A stretch of 34,878 nt of DNA from a bacterium (GTDB taxonomy: Bacteria > Bacillota_I > Bacilli_A > RF39 > UBA660): NCBI GenBank assembly GCA_029012525.1, contig JAQXMG010000059.1:1-34878 (forward strand), read 5' to 3'. The notes under the pieces were generated by a model that was given only the letters and a program-made list of their open reading frames with translations, was not told the DNA's origin and did no database searches. A program made the translations under genes and the position numbers. Within the stretch, counting starts at the first letter, position 1; each line of letters starts with the position of its first letter. Positions 5,662-30,724 of this stretch are shown in pieces.

Positions 5662-5703
5662 TATTTTCTCCCTTCTTACTACCACGCAAGTATATTATAA
5701 TAC

Positions 5704-8002: not shown

Positions 8003-8548
8003 TTATATTTCCATTAAGTCTTGTTCTTTTTCTTTTAAAAGATCTTCTATTTTTTTATTATAATCATTTACAACATCTTGAATTTTATCGTTAATATGCT
8101 TTTCTTCGTCTTCAGGAAGTTTAGCTATTTTTATTTCATCTAATATATCTTTTCTAATATTTCTTATAGCAATTCTTCCTTCTTCAGCATATTCTTTAGC
8201 TTGTTTGACAAGTTCTTTTCTTCTTTCTTCATTTAAAGGTGGAATATTAATAAATACCATTTCCCCGTTGTTATTTGGAGTAACTCCTAAATTTGCTTCA
8301 TAAATTGCTTTTTCTATTGCACCTAAACAATTTTTATCAAAAGGTTTAATATTAATAGTTCTTGCTTCAGGAACAAATATTGTAGCAAGTTGTTTAACTG
8401 GAGTTAAAGTACCATAATATAAAACGTTTACATTATCTAACATATTAGGATTAGCTCTTCCTGCTCTTATACTTGTAAATCTTTCACATAAATTTTCTAT
8501 TGCTTTATTCATTTTTTCTTTTGCTAATAAACAAAAGTCAGTATCCAT
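8003..8548 (-). CDS. frr: ribosome recycling factor
   Basis: 181 aa. Typical RRF sequence: RAGRANPNMLDNV...YYGTLTPVKQLATI...PPLNEERRKELVKQAKEYAEEGRIAIRNIR. Confidence 0.95.
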   Translation of the reverse strand: MDTDFCLLAKEKMNKAIENLCERFTSIRAGRANPNMLDNVNVLYYGTLTPVKQLATIFVPEARTINIKPFDKNCLGAIEKAIYEANLGVTPNNNGEMVFINIPPLNEERRKELVKQAKEYAEEGRIAIRNIRKDILDEIKIAKLPEDEEKHINDKIQDVVNDYNKKIEDLLKEKEQDLMEI

Positions 8549-8648: not shown

Positions 8649-9755
8649 TTATTCATTTATACTAAATTGTAAATCGTAATTAATATTTCCTCCTGATGCA
8701 CCATTTTCACAATCAACATCCTGTCCTTCAACCCACATATAAACTCTGATTTTTGTAATTCCTTGAGTTAAACCTCCAAATACTGCAACAGATGTATCAA
8801 AGTTTGCTTCTGTTGCATAATCAACAGTAACTGGAGCAAAATAATTACTATTAATAGCAGTCCAAGTTCCTCCTGCTGATGTACAATCACCTTCTGTTGT
8901 TTTACTTGCATCTCTTACACCACCATTTAAACAAGCCATAAATGTTGATGAAGCTTCTTTTAATAAAACATTATTATCTGTTATTATTTCTGCTTTTACT
9001 CCTTCATAATCTAGTTGTGCTGCACCTGTTGCTGTTGTTGTTATTCCGTAAACATCAGCTGCATTTGTTATACCAGTTGCTGAATGAACATCGTAATTTG
9101 GTTCCCAAATATATACTGGTGATGCAGCGCTTCCCTTTATTCCTTGAACATCTTTTAATTCAGTACCATTAGCAACGTTACCTAATACAACAAATCCAAT
9201 ACGTGAAGCATTTTTAATACCTTTGTCATCACCTTGTGCTGTTACATTTGATGTTCTTGTCATATATAAGTCTCCAGTTTTATCAACTTTCAAATATAAA
9301 TCAAATGTAATAAATTTACCGATATTACTATCTGTTGTTCTTGTTTCTGTAGTTTTTGTTGCGGTTAAAATATAATCACCATCAGTATTTGTATCAGTTA
9401 CACCATAAAACATTTCAAGCCTTCCATTCGCATCAACAACTTTCGCAGTTGAAACAGGTTCTAACGTATCTGGTAATTGATTAATACTTAATGCCTGTGT
9501 TTCAGCCAAGTAATTAGTATGAGCATTCGTAATATCAGTTGTTTGAATAATTGATTTCCAATTTGTTCCATCTGTTGATATTTGAATACCATTTTTAGCT
9601 GCTACATTTACAGTTATTTTATTAATTGTTACAGTTTCATTAGCAGTAAACCATGCATATGATGATACTCCTAAAAGTGAACCAGTAACGCACAATAATA
9701 ATAAAAGTAATAATAGTCTTCTTCTTCTGTTATTCTTTTTTTCTTTGTCTTTCAT
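8649..9755 (-). CDS. exported protein with SipW-cognate signal peptide, large TasA-superfamily-like paralog A (candidate major fibre subunit)
   Basis: The N-terminus is KKNNRRRRLLLLLLLLCVTGSLLGVSSYAWFTANE: basic, then hydrophobic, then the aromatic-A-x-F-x-(N/D) motif seen in TasA/CalY. It is a clear paralog of 21344-22354 (LEPVST, GKFI.FD, IWEPNYD.H, KIR.Y.W.EGQDVDCEN). It has its own promoter, a strong SD (AGAAGGA) and its own terminator. Confidence 0.8.
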   Translation of the reverse strand: MKDKEKKNNRRRRLLLLLLLLCVTGSLLGVSSYAWFTANETVTINKITVNVAAKNGIQISTDGTNWKSIIQTTDITNAHTNYLAETQALSINQLPDTLEPVSTAKVVDANGRLEMFYGVTDTNTDGDYILTATKTTETRTTDSNIGKFITFDLYLKVDKTGDLYMTRTSNVTAQGDDKGIKNASRIGFVVLGNVANGTELKDVQGIKGSAASPVYIWEPNYDVHSATGITNAADVYGITTTATGAAQLDYEGVKAEIITDNNVLLKEASSTFMACLNGGVRDASKTTEGDCTSAGGTWTAINSNYFAPVTVDYATEANFDTSVAVFGGLTQGITKIRVYMWVEGQDVDCENGASGGNINYDLQFSINE

Positions 9756-9858: not shown

Positions 9859-10419
9859 TTAAATTATTTGTTCTGAATTTATTATTATTTCAATATTTTC
9901 CATAATATCTTGATACATATAGTTAATATAAGTTGTTTGAAAATAAACTTTTAATGTATATGTATTCATTTGGTTTTGTTCTTTTATAAATTGTTTTTCA
10001 CTTGTTTCCATATTATAAAAATATGTTCCATATTCATCTTGTAATTTTTCTTCTCGTTCTATTATATTATTAGTAAAATCATCATTTAAAAACAACTCAT
10101 ATTCTAATGGCAAATTAGTTGTTGCTTTTATCATTAAATTATATTTCAAATCAACTTCTGCTACTTTTTCATTGTCATAATTTGACACAGTAAATGTCCA
10201 TACATATGCCTCTTCTCTTGGAATCATATCGTGAATTGTTAATGTATTTGTATAATAATCTTCTTTTAAAAGGTAAAATGCTATTCCAGAATTTACCGAA
10301 ATATCTGTCTTAGTTTCGTACTTAGAAAAAACAATAGGTATAAAATTTATTACTATAACAAATAATATGAAAACAATAATTAGCCTAAATGATAACTTTA
10401 ATCTTCTTTTATCTATCAT
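9859..10419 (-). CDS. small exported protein (186 aa), SipW-substrate-like
   Basis: An N-terminal membrane/signal segment is followed by FSKYETKTD. The protein is beta-rich and ends with a strand of the form IEIIINSEQ (ends in Q, as in the other small paralogs). The ATG overlaps the stop of the upstream peptidase gene (ATGA). Confidence 0.65.
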   Translation of the reverse strand: MIDKRRLKLSFRLIIVFILFVIVINFIPIVFSKYETKTDISVNSGIAFYLLKEDYYTNTLTIHDMIPREEAYVWTFTVSNYDNEKVAEVDLKYNLMIKATTNLPLEYELFLNDDFTNNIIEREEKLQDEYGTYFYNMETSEKQFIKEQNQMNTYTLKVYFQTTYINYMYQDIMENIEIIINSEQII

Positions 10420-11009
10420 AATTCTTCAATATCATCACTTTCATCTAAATATTCTATTTCTTCTTTTCTATTATTATTTATCTTATTTTTATTATCATTT
10501 TGACTTGTTTTGCTATCTTTACTTTTATATGAAAACGCAACACTAAATAATGTTAAAGTAACAAGTATTGATATTAATACTTTTGGCTCTGTTAATGTCT
10601 TTTTCCATATACCTAGTCTTGGTATTACTTTAACAACTTTACCAACAACTACACTTTTATCTATTGGATTATCTGATACGTTATTAGCGTCTCCTTTTGT
10701 CACTATTACATCTTGTTCCATTTTAACAATTCTATGTGTTATAAAATCTTTCCCAACTTTATATGTTATTATATCTTGCTCTTTTACATCTTTTGTTATT
10801 TTAACAATTATGACATCATCTATGTTTATTTGTTCTGCCATAGATCCCGTTGCTACATCAAAAAATGTATATCCAAAAAAATTAACGTATGGTTTGTTCA
10901 AAATGTTTAATACAAAAAAATTATATAATGCAAAAAAAACAATGATGGCAACGAAAAACATCAAAATATTAGTAACTATTTTTACTATTTTTTCAAATAT
11001 GTTTTTCAT
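10416..11009 (-). CDS. sipW: SipW-type (ER/archaeal-type, S26B) signal peptidase I, copy 1
   Basis: N-terminal TM, Ser motif ATGSMAE, His motif ITHRIV, TKGDANN, a C-terminal TM, and a charged tail ending DDIEEL. This is colinear with B. subtilis SipW (SGSMEP / THRI / KGDNN, recalled). SD is GGTGGTGG. Confidence 0.85.
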   Translation of the reverse strand: MKNIFEKIVKIVTNILMFFVAIIVFFALYNFFVLNILNKPYVNFFGYTFFDVATGSMAEQINIDDVIIVKITKDVKEQDIITYKVGKDFITHRIVKMEQDVIVTKGDANNVSDNPIDKSVVVGKVVKVIPRLGIWKKTLTEPKVLISILVTLTLFSVAFSYKSKDSKTSQNDNKNKINNNRKEEIEYLDESDDIEEL

Positions 11010-11040: not shown

Positions 11041-11610
11041 TTAATTCAAATATTGACTAAAGTTAATGCTCACTTTTATTTCTAATTGATTGTTGTAAAT
11101 ACTACCAAGTTCATAATCTTTAATGTTATCATCTATATCTTCCCAAATAAGCGTTGTTCTTATATTATGCTTTATCCCATTTTCAATATCATCCAATGTT
11201 ATTATTCCTATATAGGTATTATCATCATTTGTTATTAGTTCTTTATTATTTAACTCTTGTAATGATAATACATGAATTGCTTCATTATCTATATTACTAT
11301 AGTCAAAGGTTATTTCATATTTTATTGCAACATCTGACTGTTTAGGATCTATTATTATATCATAATATCCTTTTATTGATGGTGCAACTTTACCACTTGC
11401 CACATGTTCATTTTCTTCCCATATAATGTTTTGTAATTCTATATTATTTGTTTTTACTGCATCAATATCATTTACATTTATTTCCCATTTTGCTATATTT
11501 AATTCTTTTTCTATATTTCTATTTGTTTCATATAAAGCATAAGTACTTGAAATTGTATATGCCATTATTCCAAGTACTATAATTGTTAATAATATAAATA
11601 ATTTTTTCAT
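11041..11610 (-). CDS. small TasA/camelysin-superfamily-like exported protein (189 aa)
   Basis: The signal peptide ends with SSTYALYETN. Then come IAKWEINVND and APSIKGYYDIIIDPKQSDVAIKYEITF, and the last strand is LEIKVSINFSQ. It is a paralog of 23254-23847. Confidence 0.75.
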   Translation of the reverse strand: MKKLFILLTIIVLGIMAYTISSTYALYETNRNIEKELNIAKWEINVNDIDAVKTNNIELQNIIWEENEHVASGKVAPSIKGYYDIIIDPKQSDVAIKYEITFDYSNIDNEAIHVLSLQELNNKELITNDDNTYIGIITLDDIENGIKHNIRTTLIWEDIDDNIKDYELGSIYNNQLEIKVSINFSQYLN

Positions 11611-12173
11611 TATAATTCTTCTACATTTTTATTTCTTGCAGGTTTTACTTTTTCTTTTTTCTCTGTTTTTATTTCTTTGACTACTTCATATATTTCATAT
11701 ATAAATATGAACAATACAGGCATTATAACAAATAGTAAGAAGCCCCATCTTGATTCTAAAGCTTTTAATATTCCTCCAATACCATTATAAACTTTTGCAT
11801 TTTCTAATGTACCTATTACATATTCTTGAGATAATAGATAGTTTCCTTCAATTGTAAATGTTGTTTCATTTTCAATTGTTTCTGTTTGTAATACTTTTGA
11901 AAAACTAACATCTACTTGATTAGCATAAGTGTTATAAAAGAAAATATGTTCTCCACTTTCTATTTCATTTTTAACATCATGTTTTACAACTACCAAATCT
12001 CCTTTTTTAAGTCCATTTCCTAATTTGTCATCTTCAACAATTATTAATGAACTATTTTTAAATGTTGTAATATTATATTTATTATAATTAAGCAAACAAG
12101 TTGTTAAAAATATAACTGTTGCAACATAAATAAATATTAATATTCCAAATACTACTTTTAACGTTTTTTTCAT
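11610..12173 (-). CDS. SipW-like pseudo-peptidase (topology kept, catalytic residues lost)
   Basis: Same layout as the two SipW copies: N-terminal TM, beta core, C-terminal TM, and a charged tail ending NVEEL. However, EDDKLGNG replaces GSMxE, FSKVL replaces THRIV, and IEGNY replaces KGDAN. The likely start is ATG 12173 (MKKTLKV), behind GGTGGT; the track start at 12218 is a TTG with no SD. Confidence 0.6.
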   Translation of the reverse strand: MKKTLKVVFGILIFIYVATVIFLTTCLLNYNKYNITTFKNSSLIIVEDDKLGNGLKKGDLVVVKHDVKNEIESGEHIFFYNTYANQVDVSFSKVLQTETIENETTFTIEGNYLLSQEYVIGTLENAKVYNGIGGILKALESRWGFLLFVIMPVLFIFIYEIYEVVKEIKTEKKEKVKPARNKNVEEL

Positions 12174-12223
12174 TATTACCACCATAAAAATTATATCACG
12201 TATATTTTTAATATGCAATTTTT

Positions 12224-13747
12224 TTATTTAATATTTTCCCTTTCTAAATTATTTTTTTTAACATCAAGTATAAACTTTATATTGTCTATATTTAAATTAC
12301 TATTTATTATGGAGTTATAAATAATAATTTTTTCCAAATCTTTTTTTAATATTGATACATTAGATTCATCTAAAATATCACAATCAATATTTAATAATTT
12401 ATAATGTTCTTGTATTACTTTTTCAATATTATCATTTTTAAAAATACTAACATTATCTATTAAAGTATTATATGGACATAGCAGAAAATATTCTAAGTCT
12501 TTTATTGTCTTATCTTTATTTTCTAGATTTTCCTTTTCTATACTTTTTATTAAAAAATTATAATTATAACAACTCATTTTTAATATATCATATATTGAAG
12601 ATGAATCATTGATATTTATTAATATTTCTTCACAAAATTTATTATTTTCATATTCATCATATAAATTTTGTAACTCTGTTATTTTTTCATTTATTAAAAG
12701 ATTATATTCATCTTGTTTTATATCATTTTTGTTATAATATGACATAAACTTCTTATTGTATTTTTTTAATATTTTTTCTTCTTTTTTTATTTCTTTTAAT
12801 GATTTTTTAACACTTTGTTTATATTTTTCTTTATCTTTATATATTTCTTTTATATCATTTATTAAAAATAAATATTTCAAATAATTATCATACTCACATA
12901 AAGAGTTATATAAACTTACTAAATCATTATCATACTTCTTATAATCGTTATCGTCTTTTATAAATTTCTTATATAAAGACTCTATTTTATTTTGATCATA
13001 ATCTTTTATATCATATATTCCATCATAAAAATTATTAAATATTACATCTTCAGATTGTTTTAAATTATTATTTGATATTAATATTTGATTAATAGAATTT
13101 CTTATTTCTTGTTCGCTTATTTTTGATGTCATCTTATTTAAATATTTAATAAAGTATTTTTCATATTTTAAATATAAATATTTAAAGTTTAAAGAAATAT
13201 GAGCTATAACACTAGGACACTTCCAGTAAATATTTTTAAATACCTCTTTCATTTTTTCTTCATCAACATTATATAGAGAATTTACAAAAAAGTTTTTCAT
13301 ATAACTATAAGAATAATAACTATAGCAAAATTCTTTATCTGTCAAATTGATATTACATTTTCTAAAAATGTTAAGTAGATTTATAATTGTTTCATTTAAT
13401 TTTTTTAAGTTATCATTAGAATTTATATTTAATTCATATATATTTTTGTCTATGTTTAATTTTTTATATGGAGATATCATATTATCTTTTAAATTAATAT
13501 AATCTATAAAAGCATCTAATTTTTTTAAATTTTCTTCCTCATTTATATCAGTTTTTTTTATGCTAAATATTATGTTATCATATCTTTTTGTTATTTCTTC
13601 ATATAAATCAGTTTGTAAGTTTTTAGCTACTTTTAATATTCCGTTACATTTTTCTTTGTATTCATTTATATTTTTTTTATTTGTCTTTGGCATATTAGAT
13701 AATATATCATTTATAACATTTAATTTTTCCTTGTATTCATTAATCAT
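12224..13747 (-). CDS. cytoplasmic Lys/Asn/Tyr-rich helical protein of unknown function (~507 aa)
   Basis: Long uninterrupted ORF with no TM or signal peptide and no motif I recognise. The likely start is ATG 13747 (MINEYKEKL), behind GGTGAT; the track start at 13780 would overlap the upstream micro-ORF. Confidence 0.7.
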   Translation of the reverse strand: MINEYKEKLNVINDILSNMPKTNKKNINEYKEKCNGILKVAKNLQTDLYEEITKRYDNIIFSIKKTDINEEENLKKLDAFIDYINLKDNMISPYKKLNIDKNIYELNINSNDNLKKLNETIINLLNIFRKCNINLTDKEFCYSYYSYSYMKNFFVNSLYNVDEEKMKEVFKNIYWKCPSVIAHISLNFKYLYLKYEKYFIKYLNKMTSKISEQEIRNSINQILISNNNLKQSEDVIFNNFYDGIYDIKDYDQNKIESLYKKFIKDDNDYKKYDNDLVSLYNSLCEYDNYLKYLFLINDIKEIYKDKEKYKQSVKKSLKEIKKEEKILKKYNKKFMSYYNKNDIKQDEYNLLINEKITELQNLYDEYENNKFCEEILININDSSSIYDILKMSCYNYNFLIKSIEKENLENKDKTIKDLEYFLLCPYNTLIDNVSIFKNDNIEKVIQEHYKLLNIDCDILDESNVSILKKDLEKIIIYNSIINSNLNIDNIKFILDVKKNNLERENIK

Positions 13748-13871
13748 TATTATCACCACTAGATAACTTTTCCATATCACTTTCTAATTTGTTTATAAAT
13801 TCTGTTATTTCTTTATACATCTCAATTAAATCGTTATTATCTAATTCCTTTGCTTTTACATCTTCCATCAT
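13740..13871 (-). CDS. candidate 43-aa acidic micro-protein (not in the ORF track)
   Basis: ATG at 13871 lies 5 nt after GAGGT. Translation: MMEDVKAKELDNNDLIEMYKEITEFINKLESDMEKLSSGDNND. Its TAA overlaps the ATG of the next gene (ATGATTAATG arrangement). It sits 24 nt after the giant gene's stop. Confidence 0.4.
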   Translation of the reverse strand: MMEDVKAKELDNNDLIEMYKEITEFINKLESDMEKLSSGDNND

Positions 13872-13895: not shown

Positions 13896-16800
13896 TTACT
13901 TTATAAATATGTATTTGTAAACATCTCCAATATAATTATTTCCATCATATAAACTAAAGTATAATTTATATGTTCCTGTAGTTAAGTTTTCTTTAAAATG
14001 TATATAGTAATTTAAAGATGCAGGAATACTATCTGTTACTAAATATTCATATTCATTATTAGTGGAACTTAAATTATCACTAATATAATCTTTTAAATCA
14101 ACCAAATCATAATTTGTTGAATATATACTGTCATAATTTCTTCTTTTTAATGATATTCTAAGGTTTGGATTTGAAAGACCTGATGCATATTTTATATTAA
14201 AAACTGATGAAGTTGAATCATTTAAATTCTTACCTGTTGTTTTATCTATTGTTATTTGGGTTTCATCTGCTGTTACATTTAAACCATATATTGCATTTAC
14301 AATTTCAAGATTTATTTCTTTTGTATCCGATGATGTTAATCCATAATAAATTCCATCACCTGAACCAAATGACTCAATAACAATTGTATATAATCCACTT
14401 GATAAACTACTATTTGTTGTATCAAATGTAAGAATAGATTGTACATTTGATACTTTATCTGCAACACTTATTCTATAACTTCCATCCATTCTTGGACTGT
14501 ATGATATTCCATTATAAATAATAAATGTTCCCATAAGGTCATAACCATTTACTTTATTACCATTTTGATCTTTTAATGATATTTTTAATCCAAGTTTTTT
14601 TTCATAATAATTAGTATCTTGTACTACAATACCACTTGATAGTTTAGTTTGTGTAAACGATAATGTTACAGTAATATCATTTTTATGTCCTACGTACATC
14701 CTATCTTTATCAAGTTCAGCATCAACTTTTATTAAAGCATTTGTATCTTTATATAAACTATAGCCCATTACTCTTTGCTGAATACCAAGTACTCCAATTA
14801 ATACTTGATTATTTCCATCTCTTAATTCTATTAATAATGTTTCATTTAGTTTATCCTCAGTTATATTACTTTCACTAAAATCTATTATAAACACAAATTC
14901 TTCTAATGCCTTTTTTATATCTTCGTGATAATAAATATTTTGTTTTTCTGATTCATTAAAGTTATTTGTCGTGCTATTGCTACCCATTTTTATGAATTTA
15001 GAAAATTCATATGATACTTCGCTGTAGTTATTATACTCTTCTAATGATGAATCATAATCATCCTGACTTACTACATAGTAATAGTATTCTGGATTTTCCA
15101 TATCAGCATAATCTATCATTGTAATTCTTGTATTAACTGGCAATGAAAAACTTGATACTAATACATGATGATATCCATCTTTATATAAATTTCTTTCACT
15201 TTCTGCATATAGTGAATAATATGTACTTATACTTGATGTTGTTGTTACATTAGTTGCTGTTGTTGCAAATAAATCATATTTTCTACCAGCAGAAATAGCT
15301 CCTTCATATTCATTTGTTTGATATAATGCACGTTGCAGATGTACTACAATGTTTAATCTCTCAACCTTATTTTCAATAGGACTTATTGGTGTTGAAACTT
15401 GTAAAGATATTGTAACACTGCCCATATTTTTTTCTGTTTGTAAATTTTTAGAGTGATATAAATAAAATAATAAACTTGGTACAGTACTTGAGTTTTCACT
15501 ATAATAAGATGTACTACCACTATAAGGATTACTATTTGCATCATCTGTATAAAAAGTTGTTTTACCATAATTCATCCAACCAGTATTACTACTTTCCATA
15601 ACTAAACTCATTTTAGTATCTGCTTCATCTGAAATTCTTGGAATATCGTTACTATCTGTTAAAGTTACATCTTGATCTAATTCACTATAAGAGAAACCAA
15701 CAACAGTAAACACAGTGTTTGGTGTAGAAAAATTAATTAATGGTAATTCTACAGCTCCTAAAGTTGAATATTTTGATGCTATTAGATCAATCTCATATGA
15801 TGCAACAACTTCTCCGACTACCCACATATAATAGTTTGCATCATCAGGTGTTGGATTTATATATTTTTGGATAATTGTTCCTTGATTATCTTCATTTTCA
15901 TAATTTGTATAAAAACCATTTACTGTTATATCATGATTTGTTTCATGGAGTCCTAGTACATAACTACCATCTGAAAAATAGTAAATGTCATTTGATGATA
16001 CACTATCCAAAGAATTATATTGACTATCATACATAGCAGTTTCTATATTACCATTTCGATCATGATTATAAAGTCCAAAAAATGTCATACCAGAAACTTT
16101 TCCATAAGCAGATACACTTTCATTTTCTGCAATGTTTATATTTTTACCTTCCCATATATATATTCTATTATCAACATTTTTTGTAACATTTCCATTATCA
16201 TCTATTACAACTTGTGATAAATTTTCTTCTCCGTCTATATCCACTAAAGACGAAAATTTTTGAAGCATATTTGTTCCATTTACAAGATAAATGTTTGTAT
16301 TATTTTTTATTTTTAAATGTCCTATTCTTGATAAACTAAATAACACATTTGAATATTCATTTGTTCTATCTGTTGCACCATTAAGTTCTATATAAGAATT
16401 ACTTATTGTTACTATATCAGATCTTTGAATTGAGATATTTTTCATTGGATTTTCTTTTGTTCCATAGTTACTGATATTAATATAGCTATATCCACCAGAT
16501 GATGATGCATTACCTGAGCCAAAAATAGAACCTTTTATTTCATACTTGTCATGTCCTTCTGCATTTAAATTCATATTGATTCCTGTTGTTACACTTATGA
16601 AACTAAAATCGTATTCAGTACTTCCTGATGCATTTGCTTCACCACCACCAAATACTGTTCCATCTATTATGATATTACCTTTTTCTAGATTTTCTACTGA
16701 TGATGTTACATAACCTATATTAAGATTTGTTATACCATATACTTTGGCAGTATTAGCTCCACCATAGACATTGCCTCCTACTTCACTTCCTGTTATATTT

Positions 16801-19800
16801 ACTGTTACAACAGAATTATTATTTTCTTCAGTACCAGTATTAGCAGCATTACCACCACCGAATATGTGATTTGAAACTTTTGTTGTTCCGGTAACATTTA
16901 ATACTGAATTGCCACTTACTATAGCACTTTGTCCATTGCCACCACCATAAATACTACCATATACGTTTGAATTTGATACTGTAACATCGGTATTTCTATT
17001 AACACCAGCTTCATTTCCTCCACCAAATATATCCTTGCTTATATTAGATGATGTGATATTTAATTTTGTTTCTCCAACTTGAGCTTTGTTACCACCACCA
17101 TAGATAGTATCAATAGTACTATCTGTAATTACTAAATCTGTTTTGTTAACATTTCCTCCTAAGTTGTTACCACCATATATAGTTCCAATAGTAGATGTAC
17201 TTTGTACATTTATATTTGTTTGTTCAACAGTTCCACTACTATTTGAACCACCATATAAATTGTTTATTTTACTATTTTCAACATTGATTTGTGTTGTTGT
17301 AACATCAGCTTTGTTACCACCACCAAAAACGTTTTCTATTTCATTAGTTATATCTTTTATTAAAATATCACTTTCAGTTGCTACAGCCTCATTACCACCA
17401 CCATAGATAGTATTTATAGTTCCATCTGTTACATCAATATCAGATTTTGTAACAATTCCTCCCAAATTATTACCACCATAGATAGTATTTACAACACCAC
17501 CGGTTATATTTATATCTGTTAAAGGTACATTACCTAGAGTATTTGAACCACCATAGATATTACCACAGTTTCCTGATGTTAAATTTATATTTGTTTTTGT
17601 AGTTATATTAGCTTCTTCACCACCACCAAATACATTTGTTATTGTAGCTCCTTGAATATTTACATTTGTTTCGTTTGTTACTGCTTTTTTACCGCCACCA
17701 TAAATTGTTGCTGCAGTTCCTGTTATAGCATTAATATTGGATGTTTCAAGACTTCCACCAAGATTATTTCCACCATATATAGTTTCAACATTACTGCCTT
17801 GTAGATTTATATTACTTTGTCTAACATTTCCACTACTATTTGAACCACCAAATACTATTTGAGGATTATCTCCATTAAGTTCTATATTTGTTTCATTTAA
17901 AACATCAGCTGCATTACCACCGCCATAGATAGTATCTACTGATGAACCATTTATATAAACGTTAGTAGTTGTTGTTGTAGCGATATTTCCTCCTCCATAA
18001 ATTGTTTCTATATCACCATTATTTAGAATAACATTACTTACATTTGTTGTTCCTCCCAAATTATTACCACCATAGACATTGTTTGCTGTTCCACTTTCTA
18101 TTAAGACATTGGTTTCCAAAACATCTCCAAGTTTATTTGAACCGCCAAAAAGATTTTCTGTTATGTTAGAACCATCAAGTTTTACATTTGTTTCATTAGC
18201 TCCAGCTTCATTTGAACCACCATAAACATTATTTGCTGTTCCTCCATAAAGATTAACATGTGTTGTTAAAACTCCAGTTTTGTTTCCTCCTCCATATATA
18301 TTAGTACAAACTCCATCGTTTAAATTAACAGTTACTATACCATTTGGTGTGCCTGATGTATCATTTCCACCATAAACATTTGTGATTATACCATTATTTA
18401 TATCGACATCTACATTACCACAAACATATGGTATTATATCGCTACTTCCTTCTCCACCACCAAATACATTTGTTATATTTCCATTATTTACTACTACTTT
18501 TGTATTGTAACTAGATACACTTGTAGTTTGAGATGTTCCATTAACACTACCATATGCACTTCCACCATATACACTATTTATAGTAGGTCCAGATGTTTCG
18601 GTTCCTATTGTTACATTTACATCTTCAGTTACAAATGTTCCAATATTATTTTGATTTAAATAACCACCTTTACCACCACCATATACTGAGCCTCTTACTT
18701 CTCCTCCAAGTATATTAACATTTGTCTTGCCATATACAGTTCCAAGTTCATTACTTCCACCATAAATAGAGTTATTAATAATTCCATCTGTCATAGTAAT
18801 AGTTACATTAGCTTTGGTTGTAGAATTACCTGCGCCATTATTGTTTCCACCACCATATACTGAATCATCTATTTGACCACCATTTATCTTTATTATAGTT
18901 GTTGTTGAGTTTTGTGATGATACAACTCCTGTTGCACCATAATTTCCACCACCATATACTGAGCCTCTAATATGACACATATCATTAATTATAATATATG
19001 AATTATCATTTGATCCTATTGTTGATGAACCTTGTTTTCCATTTCCAATACCAAATACACTTCCAGATTCTGCTCCATATAATTTATTTTGATTATTTAC
19101 AAGAGTTTCATCTCCTATTTCTGCTACTCCTCCGATATAAATATAGCTACTACCATTAAGTTTACCATCACCTTCACTTGCTTCATAACCATTTGATCCG
19201 CCAAATACAGAATATAAAACTTTTCCTCCAGTTATTTGAACAATTCTATTACCATATGTTGCCGTTTGTCCTGCTCCTGATGTTATCATTGATACTTCTC
19301 CACCTGTCATATATATATACGTATCATTGTAATTACTTCTTGAACTACTTGTTAAGGGTCCTCCGATTAAGTTGTAAATGCTTCCACCTTCTACAACTAT
19401 TTTTCTTGCTGCATAGTGTGTTCCACCCATTCTTCCACCAACATATATACCGGCTGTATAATCAGTTTTACCTTGTCCATATATACCACTTTTAACTGTT
19501 AATGAAAAAAGTATTCCTTCATCGCTATCTGAATAATAGTTATCATTCCATGCTCCACAAGCACAATAATATAAAATCAAATTATTGTTATTATCTGTTA
19601 CTCTATCATAATCATTTCCATAAATCGCTTCTGCCTTTATATATATATTTTGATGGCTTGAATTTTGATTACTAGTATTTGTTATAGACATAGTTTGGTA
19701 ATATCCACTTTCAATAATAAATCTATATTTTGTCAAAGAAGTTCTACTTCCAACATTACTTGTTGTATTATTTCCACCTAATATAGATCTAAATGTAGCA

Positions 19801-21314
19801 TAGTTACTTTGTTTTTCTATTCCTCTTCCTATTTTTACATTTTGATAGTTACCATAAAAATATCCAGTTGCTGTAGTACTAGATGATGGTGAATTATTTA
19901 AAGTATAATTTTGTCCTGATGATATTGTTATATATTCAATTCTTGTTGCATTATAGCATTTTACATATGTTCTTGAAATATTCCAAGTCGGATTATAATT
20001 TGTACCATTATCTATTCCTCTTAATGTAAATGGTTTATCATGGCTACCCCAAGAATCACTTCTACTTTGTGTCATAACTAAAATATTAGTATCTCTTGTT
20101 ACAAGATAATAATAATCATCATCTATATTTAGTTTATTTTCAATTCCATTTGCATCATAATAGTTTATAAGTTCATAAACACTACATGTACTATAATTAC
20201 AGTTACCACTTAATTTATTACCATCTTCATCATAATAGTCTGACATATCACTTTGATTTGTAATTTCTTTTAACCTGTAAAATCCTGACATATTAGAATT
20301 TTTATCAAATGAATTGTAGTATGTTTCGTTAACACTTGTAGGTTCTAAAGTGGATGGTATATCAACAATTTGCATTCTATTATTTTGCAATTCGTAGTAA
20401 TCTTTTTCCTCATCATAAATATCGCTTTCTACTTCTTCATAATAAGTACAACCGCCCCAAGTTCTACATCTACAGTTTCTGTTAGTAAGACTTCCATTTG
20501 CATTATACATGTTAGCACAACTGCTACCATTTGCTACTAAAACGCTATTATAATAATTGCCTACCAAATCATATCTATATTCAATTTCATAAGCTTTAAT
20601 TTCTTTCATTCCCGCATTATCTAAAGTATTTATTGCAGTACTCCATGCTGTTGAACCAAGTAACACTTTATTAGCACTTACATAACTGGCATTAAATGTA
20701 ATTGTTATATCATTTGGAAGTCCATTACTATTGTACGTCACAGGTATTTTTGCGTATCTTACATAATATGTATTATCAAAGCTTAGTTCAACGTTTTCAT
20801 AATTTGTTATCCATCCATTAAAAGCTAAATCGTTTGGAATATCTGCAAAAGGATTATCTATTAATTCCAATAAAACGTAATCATCAAGCTTTGATTCTGT
20901 TTCATTATCTAATACATTTAATATTTTGTAATATATATACTTACTTTGTCTTTCGTTTAATCCAACATAACTTTTTTCATTATATATTAAGTCTTGACTA
21001 TCATAAGTAATATTTAATCTAACTAAATTTTTATTACTATATATTTTTTTATCTTCAGTTGTAGGGAGCGTGCCATCATTATCTGTATAATTTAAACCAG
21101 TATAATAATACCAATCTCTCATATCATCATTAACATATACAGTATCTCCAGATACCCCACTATTTATACTATTGGGATTTGTTACATAATCTCCATATGT
21201 TTTAAAGAAAGTAGTAACTAGAATAATTAATAAAGAAAATACTGGAAGTGTAAAAATTATTTTAAGTTTAATATTTGGACTTAATTTTTTTATTTTTTTT
21301 ATTAACTTTTTCAT
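13896..21314 (-). CDS. giant exported surface protein (2472 aa): SipW-type signal anchor, Cys-containing N-terminal region, ~30-coil beta-helix-like repeat region, ~850-aa beta-rich C-terminal region
   Basis: Single uninterrupted ORF with SD AGGTAGGTGA. The N-terminus is KIIFTLPVFSLLIILVTTFFKTYGDYVTN. The central repeats are (V/I)(Y/F)GG(G/S/N)N. There is no LPXTG and no choline-binding or S-layer motif at the C-terminus. Confidence 0.9.
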   Translation of the reverse strand: MKKLIKKIKKLSPNIKLKIIFTLPVFSLLIILVTTFFKTYGDYVTNPNSINSGVSGDTVYVNDDMRDWYYYTGLNYTDNDGTLPTTEDKKIYSNKNLVRLNITYDSQDLIYNEKSYVGLNERQSKYIYYKILNVLDNETESKLDDYVLLELIDNPFADIPNDLAFNGWITNYENVELSFDNTYYVRYAKIPVTYNSNGLPNDITITFNASYVSANKVLLGSTAWSTAINTLDNAGMKEIKAYEIEYRYDLVGNYYNSVLVANGSSCANMYNANGSLTNRNCRCRTWGGCTYYEEVESDIYDEEKDYYELQNNRMQIVDIPSTLEPTSVNETYYNSFDKNSNMSGFYRLKEITNQSDMSDYYDEDGNKLSGNCNYSTCSVYELINYYDANGIENKLNIDDDYYYLVTRDTNILVMTQSRSDSWGSHDKPFTLRGIDNGTNYNPTWNISRTYVKCYNATRIEYITISSGQNYTLNNSPSSSTTATGYFYGNYQNVKIGRGIEKQSNYATFRSILGGNNTTSNVGSRTSLTKYRFIIESGYYQTMSITNTSNQNSSHQNIYIKAEAIYGNDYDRVTDNNNNLILYYCACGAWNDNYYSDSDEGILFSLTVKSGIYGQGKTDYTAGIYVGGRMGGTHYAARKIVVEGGSIYNLIGGPLTSSSRSNYNDTYIYMTGGEVSMITSGAGQTATYGNRIVQITGGKVLYSVFGGSNGYEASEGDGKLNGSSYIYIGGVAEIGDETLVNNQNKLYGAESGSVFGIGNGKQGSSTIGSNDNSYIIINDMCHIRGSVYGGGNYGATGVVSSQNSTTTIIKINGGQIDDSVYGGGNNNGAGNSTTKANVTITMTDGIINNSIYGGSNELGTVYGKTNVNILGGEVRGSVYGGGKGGYLNQNNIGTFVTEDVNVTIGTETSGPTINSVYGGSAYGSVNGTSQTTSVSSYNTKVVVNNGNITNVFGGGEGSSDIIPYVCGNVDVDINNGIITNVYGGNDTSGTPNGIVTVNLNDGVCTNIYGGGNKTGVLTTHVNLYGGTANNVYGGSNEAGANETNVKLDGSNITENLFGGSNKLGDVLETNVLIESGTANNVYGGNNLGGTTNVSNVILNNGDIETIYGGGNIATTTTTNVYINGSSVDTIYGGGNAADVLNETNIELNGDNPQIVFGGSNSSGNVRQSNINLQGSNVETIYGGNNLGGSLETSNINAITGTAATIYGGGKKAVTNETNVNIQGATITNVFGGGEEANITTKTNINLTSGNCGNIYGGSNTLGNVPLTDINITGGVVNTIYGGNNLGGIVTKSDIDVTDGTINTIYGGGNEAVATESDILIKDITNEIENVFGGGNKADVTTTQINVENSKINNLYGGSNSSGTVEQTNINVQSTSTIGTIYGGNNLGGNVNKTDLVITDSTIDTIYGGGNKAQVGETKLNITSSNISKDIFGGGNEAGVNRNTDVTVSNSNVYGSIYGGGNGQSAIVSGNSVLNVTGTTKVSNHIFGGGNAANTGTEENNNSVVTVNITGSEVGGNVYGGANTAKVYGITNLNIGYVTSSVENLEKGNIIIDGTVFGGGEANASGSTEYDFSFISVTTGINMNLNAEGHDKYEIKGSIFGSGNASSSGGYSYINISNYGTKENPMKNISIQRSDIVTISNSYIELNGATDRTNEYSNVLFSLSRIGHLKIKNNTNIYLVNGTNMLQKFSSLVDIDGEENLSQVVIDDNGNVTKNVDNRIYIWEGKNINIAENESVSAYGKVSGMTFFGLYNHDRNGNIETAMYDSQYNSLDSVSSNDIYYFSDGSYVLGLHETNHDITVNGFYTNYENEDNQGTIIQKYINPTPDDANYYMWVVGEVVASYEIDLIASKYSTLGAVELPLINFSTPNTVFTVVGFSYSELDQDVTLTDSNDIPRISDEADTKMSLVMESSNTGWMNYGKTTFYTDDANSNPYSGSTSYYSENSSTVPSLLFYLYHSKNLQTEKNMGSVTISLQVSTPISPIENKVERLNIVVHLQRALYQTNEYEGAISAGRKYDLFATTATNVTTTSSISTYYSLYAESERNLYKDGYHHVLVSSFSLPVNTRITMIDYADMENPEYYYYVVSQDDYDSSLEEYNNYSEVSYEFSKFIKMGSNSTTNNFNESEKQNIYYHEDIKKALEEFVFIIDFSESNITEDKLNETLLIELRDGNNQVLIGVLGIQQRVMGYSLYKDTNALIKVDAELDKDRMYVGHKNDITVTLSFTQTKLSSGIVVQDTNYYEKKLGLKISLKDQNGNKVNGYDLMGTFIIYNGISYSPRMDGSYRISVADKVSNVQSILTFDTTNSSLSSGLYTIVIESFGSGDGIYYGLTSSDTKEINLEIVNAIYGLNVTADETQITIDKTTGKNLNDSTSSVFNIKYASGLSNPNLRISLKRRNYDSIYSTNYDLVDLKDYISDNLSSTNNEYEYLVTDSIPASLNYYIHFKENLTTGTYKLYFSLYDGNNYIGDVYKYIFIK
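16500..19450 (-). repeat. in-frame coding tandem repeats (~75-nt units, ~300-nt four-unit super-repeat) inside the giant gene
   Basis: About 31 occurrences of [YF]GG[GSNA]x spaced ~25 aa apart. Units cycle as FGGG(N/E)xA / YGGSNxxG / YGGNNLGG / YGGGNxA between ~17000 and 17860. An identical 20-mer, ACCACCACCATAGATAGTAT, occurs at 17091-17110 and 17394-17413 (303-nt offset). Confidence 0.85.
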
Positions 21315-21343: not shown

Positions 21344-22354
21344 TTATGCCGGATTTGTTGATAATTTTAATGTTAATTTAGCATCTCCAACTGATGCTTC
21401 ATTTTCACAATCAACATCTTGTCCTTCTATCCAGATATATATTCTTATTTTACTTACCCCACTTGGTAAATCAAATATTTTTTCATAGCTATCTCTATTT
21501 GTTTTAGTTGCATAATCTATATCTACTTTTTTAAATTTTGTACTATTTTTTTCTTCCGTTGCTTCGCTTAATGAAATATTATCTTCTCTTGTTATTTCAT
21601 CCGTTACGCCATCATAATTTATTTTTGCTCCATTCTCTTTAGTAGTTACAATACCATATGTATTAAGAGCATTAAAAACTCCTCCATCAGTATGAGTATC
21701 ATAATTTGGTTCCCAAATATATGGCTTTGTTGCGTTTTTTAATGCTTGAGATATTAAATAGTTTGTTTCTTTAGGTACATTTCCTTCATTTAAAAAAGCA
21801 ATTCTAAAAGCATTTTCAATACCGACTGTTTTTTCACCATTAAAAGTAACTCCAGAATCTGTTGTCAGATATAAATTTTGAGGAGATGATGTTCTTAAAA
21901 ATATATCAAACACAATAAATTTACCACTGCTTAAAACACCATATCCAAATTCTTCAATGCTTCTTGTTGTTGTTAATAAAAAATTTCCATTTATATCATC
22001 ATTTGTTGCAATTCCATGATACAATTTTAAGAAACCATTTTCATCGATAAATCCTCCTGTTGATACAGGTTCTAAATAAAGAGGTATTTGATTTGTACTT
22101 GTTTGATAAGTTGTATCTTTAACTTCAATAAGTTCACTTGTTGTAATAGATGCTTTCCAGTTTAGTGCATCTGCTGATATATCTATTCCTCCAACTGTTG
22201 CAACCTTTATATCAAGAGAATCAATTGTAACCATTCTATTCGCAGAAAACCAAGCATATGATGATGCTGAAAAAAGTAATAATGTTCCAAGCATCAATAA
22301 TAATAGTAAAAATAATCTGTTTTTTTCCTTCTTTTCTTCTTTATATTCTTTCAT
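21344..22354 (-). CDS. exported protein with SipW-cognate signal peptide, large TasA-superfamily-like paralog B
   Basis: 336 aa. The N-terminus is KNRLFLLLLLMLGTLLLFSASSYAWFSANR. It is colinear with 8649-9755 throughout. SD AGAGGTAA lies 9 nt after the upstream stop. Confidence 0.8.
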   Translation of the reverse strand: MKEYKEEKKEKNRLFLLLLLMLGTLLLFSASSYAWFSANRMVTIDSLDIKVATVGGIDISADALNWKASITTSELIEVKDTTYQTSTNQIPLYLEPVSTGGFIDENGFLKLYHGIATNDDINGNFLLTTTRSIEEFGYGVLSSGKFIVFDIFLRTSSPQNLYLTTDSGVTFNGEKTVGIENAFRIAFLNEGNVPKETNYLISQALKNATKPYIWEPNYDTHTDGGVFNALNTYGIVTTKENGAKINYDGVTDEITREDNISLSEATEEKNSTKFKKVDIDYATKTNRDSYEKIFDLPSGVSKIRIYIWIEGQDVDCENEASVGDAKLTLKLSTNPA

Positions 22355-23253: not shown

Positions 23254-23847
23254 ATGATTAAAATTAAAAAATTTAGATTATTAATCGCATTTATTTCTCT
23301 TTTAATGTGTTTAACATTTATACAAGACACTTATGCCAAATATGTTAACAATGTAAATGGTGAAGCCAATCTTACAATTGCAAGATGGAAAATACTTGTT
23401 AATAATGAAGATATTACAACTGGTTCTTTAGCACAAGAAGTTATAACTCCAGTTTTTAGTGGTACTGATTATATAAAAAGTGATGTTATAGCTCCTACAT
23501 CAACTGGTTATTTTGATATTATTATAGATGCCAAAGATACTGATGTTTCATTTAACTATACTATAACTGTAAACACTTCTTCAGAAAGTAGTGTAACAGA
23601 TCTTGTTACAACAGGTTATTCTATAAATGATGGTGAAGTTATTAATTTTGAAAATTATAATGAAAATATAACGGGTACTATAGATTATAATACAATAGAT
23701 ATTACAACAATTAGAGTATATGTAATGTGGAATGATAGTGATTCTAATAATATGGATAATAATGCAGATACAATTGCTGCAACAACTGAAGAAAGTAAAG
23801 CTTTGTTAAATGTATCACTTTCATTTATTCAAAATAAAGGAGAATAA
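23254..23847 (+). CDS. small TasA/camelysin-superfamily-like exported protein (197 aa); the only plus-strand gene
   Basis: Strong SD. The signal peptide ends with QDTYAKYVNN. Then come IARWKILVNN and APTSTGYFDIIIDAKDTDVSFNYTITV, and the last strand is LLNVSLSFIQ. It is a paralog of 11041-11610. Confidence 0.8.
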   Translation: MIKIKKFRLLIAFISLLMCLTFIQDTYAKYVNNVNGEANLTIARWKILVNNEDITTGSLAQEVITPVFSGTDYIKSDVIAPTSTGYFDIIIDAKDTDVSFNYTITVNTSSESSVTDLVTTGYSINDGEVINFENYNENITGTIDYNTIDITTIRVYVMWNDSDSNNMDNNADTIAATTEESKALLNVSLSFIQNKGE

Positions 23848-23912: not shown

Positions 23913-24518
23913 TTATTCTTCAACTTGTACAGCAGTTATTTTAACAACTAAGCTTATACTTGGAACACTTGGATTACTTTTTTTAAAAAGATATGCTTTA
24001 TTACCCCAATATGTATCTTCATCATCATCACCACTTTCATAAGGCCATGTAACTGATAAAGAAAATTCTCCCGTTCCACCATGTGATTCCATTAATTGAT
24101 TATCCGTATTAAAAACAACTTTAAATGGATAGTCATTAGCTAATTTGTTTGATAATTCTTCACTTGTAAGAAGAGGTCCTGTTTGATATATATCTCCTAA
24201 AATAGAAGCACTAATTATTTCATATGAAAAATTTGCTCTTGTCTCACTATTATTTGTGGCAGTTATTTTTTGAAGATAGTCAGTCATACCAGGATATAAT
24301 TCTGTTATATCAAAATTTATTTCTTGTGAAAGCTCTGTACTTCCAACTGTAAATGATACATTCCAAGCTTTTACATGAGCTGTTATATTTGAATCAACCT
24401 TTGTTGTGTAAACAAACCACGCAAAAACATTTGTTGACAAAAGAAAGAATAAAAGTAGTATAGTTGATAATTTAGTTTTTTTGAATACTCTTTTTATTAT
24501 TTCTAATACATCTTTCAT
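23913..24518 (-). CDS. small TasA-superfamily-like exported protein (201 aa)
   Basis: The signal peptide ends with TNVFAWFVYTT. Then come VKAWNVSFTVG and LYPGMTDYLQKITATNNSE (compare TasA LKPGDKLTKDFQFENNGS, recalled). The last strand is LVVKITAVQ. The ATG overlaps the sipW copy-3 stop (TAATG). Confidence 0.75.
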   Translation of the reverse strand: MKDVLEIIKRVFKKTKLSTILLLFFLLSTNVFAWFVYTTKVDSNITAHVKAWNVSFTVGSTELSQEINFDITELYPGMTDYLQKITATNNSETRANFSYEIISASILGDIYQTGPLLTSEELSNKLANDYPFKVVFNTDNQLMESHGGTGEFSLSVTWPYESGDDDEDTYWGNKAYLFKKSNPSVPSISLVVKITAVQVEE

Positions 24519-25141
24519 TATAATTCTTCCTCTTCATCATCTTTCTTTTTATTATTTTCTTTTTCCATACGTTCTTCTTTTTTTTCTTCAATTATTTTTA
24601 TAATTTCTATAAACACTAGAACAACAATTGGCACAAATAAAAGAAAATAAAATCCATAGACATTATTGACAATTTTCGATATAAAACTTAATACATAAGT
24701 CTTATATATGATCTTTCCTATTATTTGATCTTCACTAATTACAGGATCTTCTGTTGGATTTGCTATGCCCTTTGTTACAAAAGAATATTTTCCATTTTTC
24801 ATTTCCTTTTTTATTACTTGATGGGCTACTATTTTTCCAGCAAAATCATCTTCTTTGCCATTATATACAACATCGTCATAAACTTCTATATCACTTGCTT
24901 TTACTTCTTTTGCTAATACCATATCTCCAACATTATATTTTGGCTCCATACTACCTGTTACTATAGTAAATAATCTATATCCTCCTAAAGAAAGATTATT
25001 ATTAGAAAATTTTTGAATCATTATTAAAGCCATTATTAGTACAATAAATATTGCTATAACTGCTTTTATAAAACCAATTGTAAATTTAACAATATCTTTT
25101 TCCATTATATCATTATATTTTATTTTTATTTTTTCTATCAT
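24518..25141 (-). CDS. sipW: SipW-type signal peptidase I, copy 3
   Basis: N-terminal TM, VTGSMEP (Ser), VAHQVI (His), TKGIANP (the Asp of GDxN is replaced by Ile), a C-terminal TM, and a charged tail ending DDEEEEL. The ATG overlaps the upstream stop (ATGA). Confidence 0.8.
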   Translation of the reverse strand: MIEKIKIKYNDIMEKDIVKFTIGFIKAVIAIFIVLIMALIMIQKFSNNNLSLGGYRLFTIVTGSMEPKYNVGDMVLAKEVKASDIEVYDDVVYNGKEDDFAGKIVAHQVIKKEMKNGKYSFVTKGIANPTEDPVISEDQIIGKIIYKTYVLSFISKIVNNVYGFYFLLFVPIVVLVFIEIIKIIEEKKEERMEKENNKKKDDEEEEL

Positions 25142-27793: not shown

Positions 27794-27803
27794 GTTATAC
27801 CTC

Positions 27804-30713: not shown

Positions 30714-30724
30714 AAAATTCCTCC

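Follow-up and report, generated by a model that had tools for sequence, protein, structure and literature searches.

The 34,878-nucleotide (nt) stretch of DNA analysed here, called the window throughout, is contig JAQXMG010000059.1 of assembly GCA_029012525.1, placed in the GTDB lineage Bacilli_A; RF39; UBA660. It has a GC content of about 25% and carries nearly every gene on the minus strand, among them an open reading frame (ORF) for a protein of 2472 amino acids (aa), hereafter the giant. This gene is one core part of a conserved cluster of about 15 genes spanning about 21 kb, a context which the initial annotation, made from the letters without database searches, had missed. The giant is probably a fibrillar beta-helix surface protein composed of new repeat and domain families and found in a new export or anchoring context, and the cluster probably builds an undescribed cell-surface structure.

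The frame of the giant is preceded by a strong Shine-Dalgarno sequence (AGGTAGGTGA) located 7 nt upstream of its ATG. Interruption or misassembly across the repeats had been named in the initial annotation as a finding which would refute its reading. The locus and synteny comparisons drew on 80 loci fetched from GTDB relatives. The orthologue at locus L001 is also 2472 aa long and aligns with 93.7% aa identity and zero gaps, that at locus L002 aligns with 80.4% identity and three gap columns, all outside the repeat array, and one intact orthologue is encoded in a circular 1.26-Mb HiFi genome; the frame is uninterrupted, and the alignment is gap-free in comparison to independent assemblies. The ratio of nonsynonymous to synonymous substitution rates (dN/dS) is 0.12 against L001 and 0.19 against L002 for the entire gene, and 0.14-0.21 for the coil region in the same two comparisons, values which show purifying selection along the entire length of the protein.

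The structure of the giant was predicted by AlphaFold2 with family alignments in two models, one of aa 1-1200, with a predicted local distance difference test score (pLDDT) of 86.6 and a predicted template modelling score of 0.80, and one of aa 1273-2472, with a pLDDT of 90.6 and a DSSP content of 49% strand and 5% helix. The chain opens with a helix at aa 13-40, is beta-rich up to about aa 400 and continues as a long run of short strands (DSSP), which in the models constitutes a beta-helix of about 45 coils between aa ~400 and ~1740. The regular unit of 25 residues is composed of a 9-10-residue strand (xTNINLxxG), a turn of 2-3 residues, a second strand of 6 residues which closes with (I)Y/F, and a GGxNxxG loop of 7-8 residues; the DSSP strand pattern has autocorrelation peaks of 0.70 and 0.54 at lag 25, and it peaks again at lag 50. 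A beta-helix solenoid had been proposed for aa 620-1600, with structure prediction as the check which might refute it, and confident models now predict that this region folds as a beta-solenoid. At 4.8 Å per coil the shaft would be about 20 nm long, and from the 25-residue coil length we infer its handedness and cross-section. When the model of aa 1-1200 was compared with the PDB using Foldseek, the best neighbours were all long parallel beta-helices (EspC, EtpA, Hap, SepA, IgA1 protease, Hbp and VacA), and against BFVD the best ones were viral parallel-beta-helix or tail-fibre-type proteins, with a top E of 4.5e-5.

On the N-terminal side of the shaft, the region of aa 42-399 has no Pfam match. 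The Cys-containing patch which the initial annotation had pointed out within the N-terminal ~600 aa begins at aa 266 (CANMYNANGSLTNRNCRCRTWGGC), and only two of its cysteines are conserved in the 69 full-length sequences of the family (the window protein and 68 homologues), namely C283 in 64 and C289 in 63 of them; C266 and C281 are lineage-specific, and a second conserved pair, C372/C377, is present in 56 of the 69 sequences at each position. The motif at which the coils start occupies aa 401-411, with invariant columns Y402, Y403, T406, D408, T409 and N410. At the other end, the last ~730-900 aa are non-repetitive and strand-rich in the model, as had been noticed for the last ~850 aa; it had been missed that the C-terminal ~900 aa are the constant immunoglobulin-like (Ig-like) module of the family. 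The strand pattern suggests about 5-7 domains, and Foldseek relates this part to the Ig-like domains of PrgB (8beg, E 3.7e-11), its best match in the PDB, to integrin alpha legs and to the macroglobulin-like (MG-like) arrays of alpha-2-macroglobulin and C5. The protein ends in a conserved ...YxYIxIK-COOH (...DVYKYIFIK in the window protein).

The repeat array lies in the central part of the shaft. A search with the regular expression [VILFM][YF]GGxx returned 31 motifs between aa 703 and 1555, one of which (aa 1022) is out of register; the spacing is 24-26 residues across 18 units (aa 1030-1455), and degenerate GG coils push the start of the array back to about aa 625. The earlier count of about 31 units of ~25 aa, centred on (V/I)(Y/F)GG(G/S/N)N and spread over aa 620-1600, agrees with this. 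Four flavours of the unit, in the order FGGG(N/E)xA, YGGSNxxG, YGGNNLGG and YGGGNxA, cycle over aa 1154-1429 (nt ~17030-17855), and the ~100-aa, ~300-nt super-repeat recognised in the initial annotation at ~17000-17860 was recovered statistically: units four apart share a mean identity of 0.41 and units eight apart one of 0.39, versus 0.24-0.35 at every other lag up to 12, and the lag-4 value was reached in none of 20,000 shuffles of the unit order (p<5e-5). The cycle, written S-N-G-G, is found in 59 of the 69 full-length sequences, with 144 cycles in total and a family-wide consensus for each flavour (YGGSNxsGxV, YGGNNxGG, YGGGNxA).

An identical 20-mer at 17091 and 17394 had been taken as a sign of recent expansion or homogenisation of the array. 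The match was confirmed as part of a 22-mer (17089/17392), whose two copies each translate to TIYGGGN, and it is accompanied by a 27-mer at 17456/18050 and by a match of at least 22 nt (a 22-mer or slightly longer) at 17231/17828. Exact matches of 22-27 nt occur at spacings of 303, 594 and 597 nt only, the last two being equal to two super-repeats, in copies which are otherwise 57-78% identical in nucleotides. Overall the copies have diverged in their DNA, since the best pair of 102-nt segments is 78% identical and the others 60-70%, and Tandem Repeats Finder reported no repeat within the array because the copies are too diverged. No variation in repeat number was seen in comparison to the relatives 94% and 80% identical. 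Given that the cycle is family-wide, that nucleotide identity at lag 4 is 57%, that the array is colinear and gap-free and that it evolves under purifying selection, recent expansion is unsupported. The exact 22-27-mers are probably explained by the strong codon bias (GGT/GGA, TAT, AAT) acting on invariant peptide motifs, and limited, short-tract gene conversion between super-repeats may have been an alternative source of them. From its sequence, the super-repeat appears to be an old, selected and length-stable structural feature of the shaft and not a contingency locus.

Sequence searches with the whole giant found no match in Pfam, NCBIfam or the PDB. Six sub-segments compared with Pfam at E<=10 gave sub-cutoff matches only (best E 0.0078), the family members of two alignments gave a single sub-threshold match to DUF7063 (E 0.0068) and nothing else in Pfam, and two family profiles had no significant match among PDB sequences. 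The searches for Chlam_PMP, PATR, Beta_helix and pectate lyase which the initial annotation had recommended were thus run, and none of these families was matched. As the protein is invisible to these searches and yet confidently folded, it comprises several new domain families; these would include, on the basis of the models, a beta-helix repeat of the type (V/I)YGG(G/S/N)N whose super-period spans four coils.

Homologues were searched with separate C-terminal and N-terminal queries. With the C-terminal 902 aa, 121 proteins were retrieved from a 90%-clustered database, all of them annotated as "hypothetical" and derived from metagenome-assembled genomes of Bacilli or Clostridia, and the C-terminal profile matched 809 representatives in a 50%-clustered library, 397 of them at E<=1e-30. 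The representatives mostly measure 2400-3500 aa, with a maximum of 7511 aa, and of the 150 that were listed nearly all carry the module at their C-terminal end. A scan of GTDB species genomes found 334 relatives, and about 60 of the 80 fetched loci hold an intact ORF of 2250-3150 aa with 17-41 motifs. The records of the relatives carry names such as uncultured Bacilli, Tenericutes, Mycoplasma, Erysipelotrichaceae and Clostridium sp. CAG:451/609/914. Most database homologues derive from short-read gene calls which start or stop inside the coil array, and this explains the fragmentary look of the family in databases.

The family is most conserved at aa 1551-1850 and least conserved in the N-terminal domain, which is the fastest-evolving part of the protein and the most diverged one in comparison to L002 (74% identity). 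Larger relatives carry DUF285 (E 5e-24) and Flg_new (E 2.4e-11) domains between the signal and the helix, as detected in two of them. The coil array and the C-terminal module are kept in P0283 (7511 aa), P0295 (5693 aa) and P0302 (4628 aa), in which thousands of residues have been added on the N-terminal side in the form of Flg_new, DUF285 (BspA-like leucine-rich) and Ig-like repeats. The N-terminal LIDNPF...FNGW stretch of the window protein was considered as a Flg_new (Listeria-Bacteroides) repeat and discarded, as Pfam gives it no support; a true Flg_new domain occurs in the 7511-aa relative.

A hydropathy scan found a sole hydrophobic segment in the giant, at aa 13-41, where the helix of the AlphaFold2 model is located. 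Putative cleavage after G41 would leave a mature protein starting at D42 with DYVTNPNSINSGVSGDTVYVNDDMR. Orthologue N-termini share a Lys/Arg-rich segment and an h-region of 18-20 residues followed by [ST][YF][GSA], an expression matched by 35 of the 48 orthologue N-termini scored; position P2' is hydrophobic in 34 of these 35 and aromatic in 18. The window protein conforms to the cleavage-site pattern, with small residues at P3 and P1 and an aromatic or hydrophobic one at P2' (T-Y-G / D-Y-V, the slash marking the putative cut), and eight other proteins of the cluster end their h-region with a similar aromatic motif, six of them fitting [ST/V][YF][AG]-x-[YF]. The site of TasA reads T-W-A / A-F, and is mirrored by that of the giant. 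The aromatic P2' of TasA is the feature reported to turn it into a SipW substrate and a poor substrate for LepB (PMC10269814). Neither an LPXTG motif (regular expression), nor a second transmembrane (TM) segment, nor a C-terminal hydrophobic segment with a charged tail was found in the giant; the autotransporter beta-barrel (PF03797) had no Pfam or NCBIfam hit in it, its C-terminus being modelled as Ig-like sandwiches. The earlier statement that the protein is exported neither as an autotransporter nor through a sortase is in line with these results.

The genes surrounding the giant are reported in Table 1 together with its domains. Synteny was assessed by tblastn of the neighbouring proteins of the window against the 80 loci. 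In 50 of 65 loci the 400 nt upstream of the giant contain the end of a homologue of the 336-aa, tasA-like gene, and in 50 of 61 the 500 nt downstream of it contain the start of a homologue of the 518-aa gene; of the 38 loci for which both flanks are available, 37 carry a SipW-like gene and 33 the AAA+ gene. The same gene order is observed across tens of species whose proteins are 25-60% identical. The curated cut-offs of the signal peptidase model TIGR02228 and of the signal model TIGR04088 are 51.85 and 19 bits, respectively, and the 336-aa protein, with 13.8 bits, falls under the latter. Just past the gene of the 368-aa protein lies a terminator (8645-8625); none of the 2110 homologues of this protein carries a name beyond 'hypothetical'. 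The 336- and 368-aa proteins were also considered as TasA or camelysin homologues, an assignment that found no Pfam or PDB sequence support.

Table 1. Domains of the giant and genes of the surrounding cluster; residues refer to the giant and positions to the window.
Feature	Residues (aa)	Position (nt)	Strand	Basis and remarks
Giant ORF		13896..21314	minus	one unbroken frame, 2472 codons + stop
Putative signal peptide or uncleaved signal anchor	1-41	21192..21314	minus	Lys-rich n-region, ~20-residue hydrophobic helix, K-T-Y-G / D-Y-V
N-terminal beta-rich globular region	42-399	20118..21191	minus	AlphaFold2 pLDDT mostly 85-95
Irregular beta-helix coils	400-702	19209..20117	minus	DSSP strands; start at invariant YYLxTRDTNI
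31 (V/I)(Y/F)GGxN coils	703-1570	16605..19208	minus	motif count and DSSP
Most regular stretch, S-N-G-G four-coil super-repeat (~100 aa, ~300 nt)	1154-1455	16950..17855	minus	motifs, permutation p<5e-5
Last irregular coils and cap (GSIFGSGNASS ... NISIQRA ... GATDRTNEYS)	1571-1742	16089..16604	minus	most conserved segment of the family, profile 0.62-0.69, with invariant and near-invariant columns
C-terminal Ig-like/MG-like beta-sandwich array, about 5-7 tandem domains	1743-2472	13899..16088	minus	AlphaFold2 pLDDT ~90, Foldseek
316-aa signal-bearing protein		28779-29729		first in listed cluster order
323-aa protein				between 316-aa gene and AAA+ gene
McrB-like AAA+ ATPase with N-terminal TM segments		26270-27814	minus	PADLOC PDC-M26A E 2e-32; McrB 6ut6 E 0.008
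DUF2357 protein		25138-26247	minus	DUF2357 E 1.6e-9
sipW3, SipW-like archaeal-type signal peptidase I		24518..25141	minus	TIGR02228 78.8 bits; GSM Ser and His kept
201-aa signal-bearing protein				between sipW3 and 197-aa gene
197-aa protein with signal motif		23254-23847	plus	paralogue of 189-aa gene
254-aa protein				between 197-aa and 336-aa genes
336-aa protein, SSYAWFSAN signal end		21344..22354	minus	directly upstream of giant, 29-nt gap; paralogue of 368-aa gene
518-aa Lys/Asn/Glu-rich protein without signal peptide		12224..13780	minus	directly downstream of giant; no family hits
sipW2, degenerate SipW paralogue		11610..12218	minus	weak SipW-model match E 0.007; catalytic Ser and His lost
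189-aa signal-bearing protein		11041-11610		between sipW2 and sipW1
sipW1, SipW-like archaeal-type signal peptidase I		10416..11009	minus	TIGR02228 60.2 bits; Ser and His kept
186-aa signal-bearing protein				between sipW1 and 368-aa gene
368-aa protein, SSYAWFTAN, bona fide SipW-dependent-type signal peptide		8649..9755	minus	TIGR04088 28.4 bits; last cluster gene

Among the three SipW paralogues, all of which have a hydrophobic segment at the C-terminal side and behind it a final acidic ...EEL tail, sipW2 shows in the alignment a DDK in place of GSM and a T in place of the His. The AAA+ protein is the most conserved of the cluster, with 68-82% identity across species, and the AAA+/DUF2357 block has been moved or inverted in some species while keeping its linkage to the cluster. 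Such conservation and persistent linkage through rearrangements are odd for a defence-like pair and suggest a motor or regulatory role in the surface system. The 197-aa gene is the only one of the cluster on the plus strand; its inverted orientation is kept in most loci, and the GC skew flips locally. A 43-aa ORF (MMEDVKAKELDNNDLIEMYKEITEFINKLESDMEKLSSGDNND) with a strong ribosome-binding site is located on the minus strand at 13740-13871, between the stop of the giant and the 518-aa gene, and overlaps the likely true start of the latter (M at 13747).

We favour, with slightly better than even confidence, the view that the giant is a Sec-exported, sortase-independent fibrillar surface protein and that it belongs to the core of a multi-gene system for a surface structure, conserved among uncultured gut Bacilli of low GC content. 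Its signal peptide would be removed after the conserved T-Y-G (G41) by sipW1 or sipW3, the two catalytically intact peptidases, and its constant C-terminal sandwich module would dock non-covalently, either on the envelope or on a fibre which the 336- and 368-aa proteins would make up. The rigid beta-helix would act as a spacer carrying at its far end the faster-evolving N-terminal domain, presumably stapled by the cysteines C283/C289 and C372/C377, as a distal binding head, and in larger relatives this end would be lengthened by the DUF285 leucine-rich and Flg_new adhesin-type repeats. Three points underlie the proposed polarity, with the C-terminus docked and the N-terminus distal: the module at the C-terminal end is constant and stands last in the chain, no other part evolves as fast as the N-terminal domain, and the adhesin repeats of the relatives are added on the N-terminal side.

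Some observations weigh against this picture. None of the family members comes from a cultured strain. The E values of the PDB structural neighbours of the helix are weak (0.05-0.1), with 8-13% sequence identity over the top four. The 'TasA-like' neighbours have no detectable sequence similarity to TasA or camelysin, so that the fibre itself is something we infer. Moreover, the first 60 aa of the giant, as well as those of one orthologue, gave no hit to TIGR04088 at E<=10, and an h-region of ~20 residues fits an uncleaved membrane anchor equally well, which would place the N-terminal domain at the membrane and reverse the polarity. The proposal of the initial annotation that export follows the SipW route is affected by this: since the giant fails TIGR04088, the route rests on the gene context, with SipW-like peptidases co-encoded in synteny, and on the TasA-like T-Y-G motif with its aromatic P2', from which export by SipW is a plausible and reasonable reading.

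The anchored alternative deserves the closest consideration, even if it appears to us rather improbable. The N-terminal helix would be an uncleaved type II signal anchor, the giant would form a spike with its N-terminal domain at the membrane and the conserved C-terminal array as the distal, functional part, and the SipW-like peptidases would serve the small cluster proteins only. The single hydrophobic helix of ~20 residues after a Lys-rich segment, the lack of a match to TIGR04088, the lack of any other recognisable anchor in the giant and the strong conservation of the C-terminal end, such as a shared receptor- or partner-binding tip might show, are all compatible with it. However, the motif straight after the h-region is conserved as a cleavage site would be (small P1/P3, hydrophobic or aromatic P2'), the insertion of DUF285 and Flg_new between signal and helix in relatives is a better fit for a distal N-terminus, and it is the N-terminal domain which evolves fastest.

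The cluster could instead build a structure on endospores and not on vegetative cells, such as a spore-surface or exosporium appendage of which the giant would be the filament or nap protein. It was with spores that TasA and SipW of B. subtilis were initially associated. Spo0A is encoded 8 kb away, and sporulation has been predicted for some of these uncultured orders (PMC10868615). Yet the promoter scan, which in this DNA of 25% GC performed no better than on shuffled sequence, gave no evidence of sporulation promoters or sigma factors, none of the cluster genes resembles a known spore-appendage protein, and we judge this role distinctly unlikely.

The passengers of type V autotransporters and TpsA proteins (EspC 9mne, Hap 3syj, SepA 5j44, EtpA 8vbb, pertactin and the chlamydial Pmp proteins) are the closest structural counterparts among those compared, in that they too are long single-chain parallel beta-helices with ~25 residues per coil and Gly-rich turns which form a rigid extracellular shaft. 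In contrast, the giant lacks a C-terminal barrel, a two-partner secretion (TPS) domain and any repeat signature of the Pmp, PATR or autotransporter kind, its host belongs to the Bacillota, encodes Spo0A, has relatives labelled Bacilli, Tenericutes or Erysipelotrichaceae and is probably not a classical diderm, and its helix is followed by ~730 aa of Ig-like sandwiches. The chlamydial GGA[ILV]/FxxN repeats (PF02415, TIGR01376), which differ from the (V/I)(Y/F)GG(G/S/N)N motif of the giant, and PATR gave no hit at E<=10 on a 400-aa repeat segment. Coils of 22-25 residues are common in polysaccharide-degrading beta-helix enzymes and in TpsA exoproteins, and EtpA is among the structural neighbours, which raises the question of whether the giant is a pectate-lyase-like polysaccharide lyase or glycosidase, or a carrier of contact-dependent or polymorphic toxins similar to TpsA/CdiA. 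This is very unlikely, as Pfam and NCBIfam show no Beta_helix, pectate lyase, TPS, haemagglutinin-repeat or toxin match even for pieces at E<=10, the coils are unusually uniform and free of long loop insertions, the C-terminus is the conserved and not the polymorphic end, and no immunity-like gene follows. Hardly any weight can be given to a mobile-element or phage tail-fibre-like protein, or to an assembly artefact across the repeats, despite the tail-fibre-type and parallel-beta-helix neighbours in BFVD, the match of the AAA+ neighbour to a candidate phage-defence model and the truncation of most database homologues inside the array, because the cluster contains no phage genes, its order is the same in tens of species at 25-60% identity, the gene is gap-free against independent assemblies with an intact orthologue in a circular HiFi genome, it is under purifying selection, and short-read contigs which break in the repeats account for the truncations.

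A surface protein of the sortase-independent kind favoured here can also be set beside systems of Gram-positive bacteria. In the tapA-sipW-tasA (calY) operons of B. subtilis and B. cereus, as in the cluster, genes for archaeal-type signal peptidases share an operon with those of their presumed substrates, and one cluster neighbour has a TIGR04088 signal. The likeness is limited to this pairing: the cluster has three peptidase paralogues, one of them dead, about nine proteins with signal motifs, an AAA+ and DUF2357 pair and a beta-helix protein of 2472 aa, none of which is known from the Bacillus operons, and Peptidase_M73/TasA (PF12389) has no Pfam match in the giant, modelled as beta-helix plus Ig-like domains, or in the cluster proteins. 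Sortase-anchored adhesins with Ig stalks (PrgB, SasG/Aap and Bap-type) resemble the giant in their N-terminal Sec signal, tandem Ig-like sandwiches and head-plus-stalk logic, whereas the giant lacks LPXTG, C-terminal TM segment and charged tail, its stalk is mainly beta-helix, and its Ig-like array stands at the constant C-terminal end.

In streptococcal pilus loci, SipA/LepA is a catalytically inactive, signal-peptidase-like chaperone, and sipW2 is likewise a dead signal-peptidase paralogue among genes for surface-structure subunits; by analogy, it may act as a chaperone. In streptococcal pili, however, sortases join the subunits by isopeptide bonds, whereas no sortase or pilin motifs were seen in the cluster, and SipA belongs to the bacterial LepB type, sipW2 to the archaeal one. 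A bolder version of our reading, offered only tentatively, would make the giant the shaft-and-head subunit of an unrecognised, sortase-independent surface organelle of uncultured gut Bacilli with reduced genomes. Its subunits would be processed by dedicated archaeal-type signal peptidases with the dead paralogue as chaperone, a membrane-embedded McrB-like AAA+/DUF2357 pair would assist assembly, and the C-terminal module, for instance through strand complementation, would plug into a fibre or base which consists of the 336- and 368-aa proteins.

No description of the giant, of the cluster or of the combination of a beta-helix with the SipW route was found in the literature searched, in keeping with the remark of the initial annotation that such a combination had not been seen. 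These Bacilli are uncultured and common in human and animal guts, and the related orders RFN20 and ML615J-28 have been reported to lack sortases and hence assumed to display few surface proteins (PMC10868615), a setting in which a sortase-independent route of display would be especially relevant. If the favoured reading is true, a protein of 2,300-3,500 aa present in hundreds of species, together with its cluster of about 15 genes, would be the main candidate for attachment to host, mucus or partner cells, and would show how a presumed monoderm can mount a giant beta-helix adhesin without sortase or autotransporter. What makes the protein interesting is that it spans hundreds of gut species, that domain databases lack it completely and that the multi-gene apparatus around it is unexplored.

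Further from the giant, the window encodes Spo0A (4891-5685, minus strand), recognised by Spo0A_C (E 5.7e-41) together with a receiver domain; the source organism, with its reduced genome, may therefore sporulate, which bears on a possible role at the spore surface. The cluster is inserted between frr (8003-8548) and the genes tsf and rpsB (29829-31696). In the arrangement rpsB-tsf-pyrH-frr, tsf and frr are usually near neighbours; in the window no ORF between them matched a kinase family. In the 80 loci, frr lies beside the cluster in L001 and L002 only, and rpsB in one other locus (L014), which indicates a recent insertion site for an old cluster.

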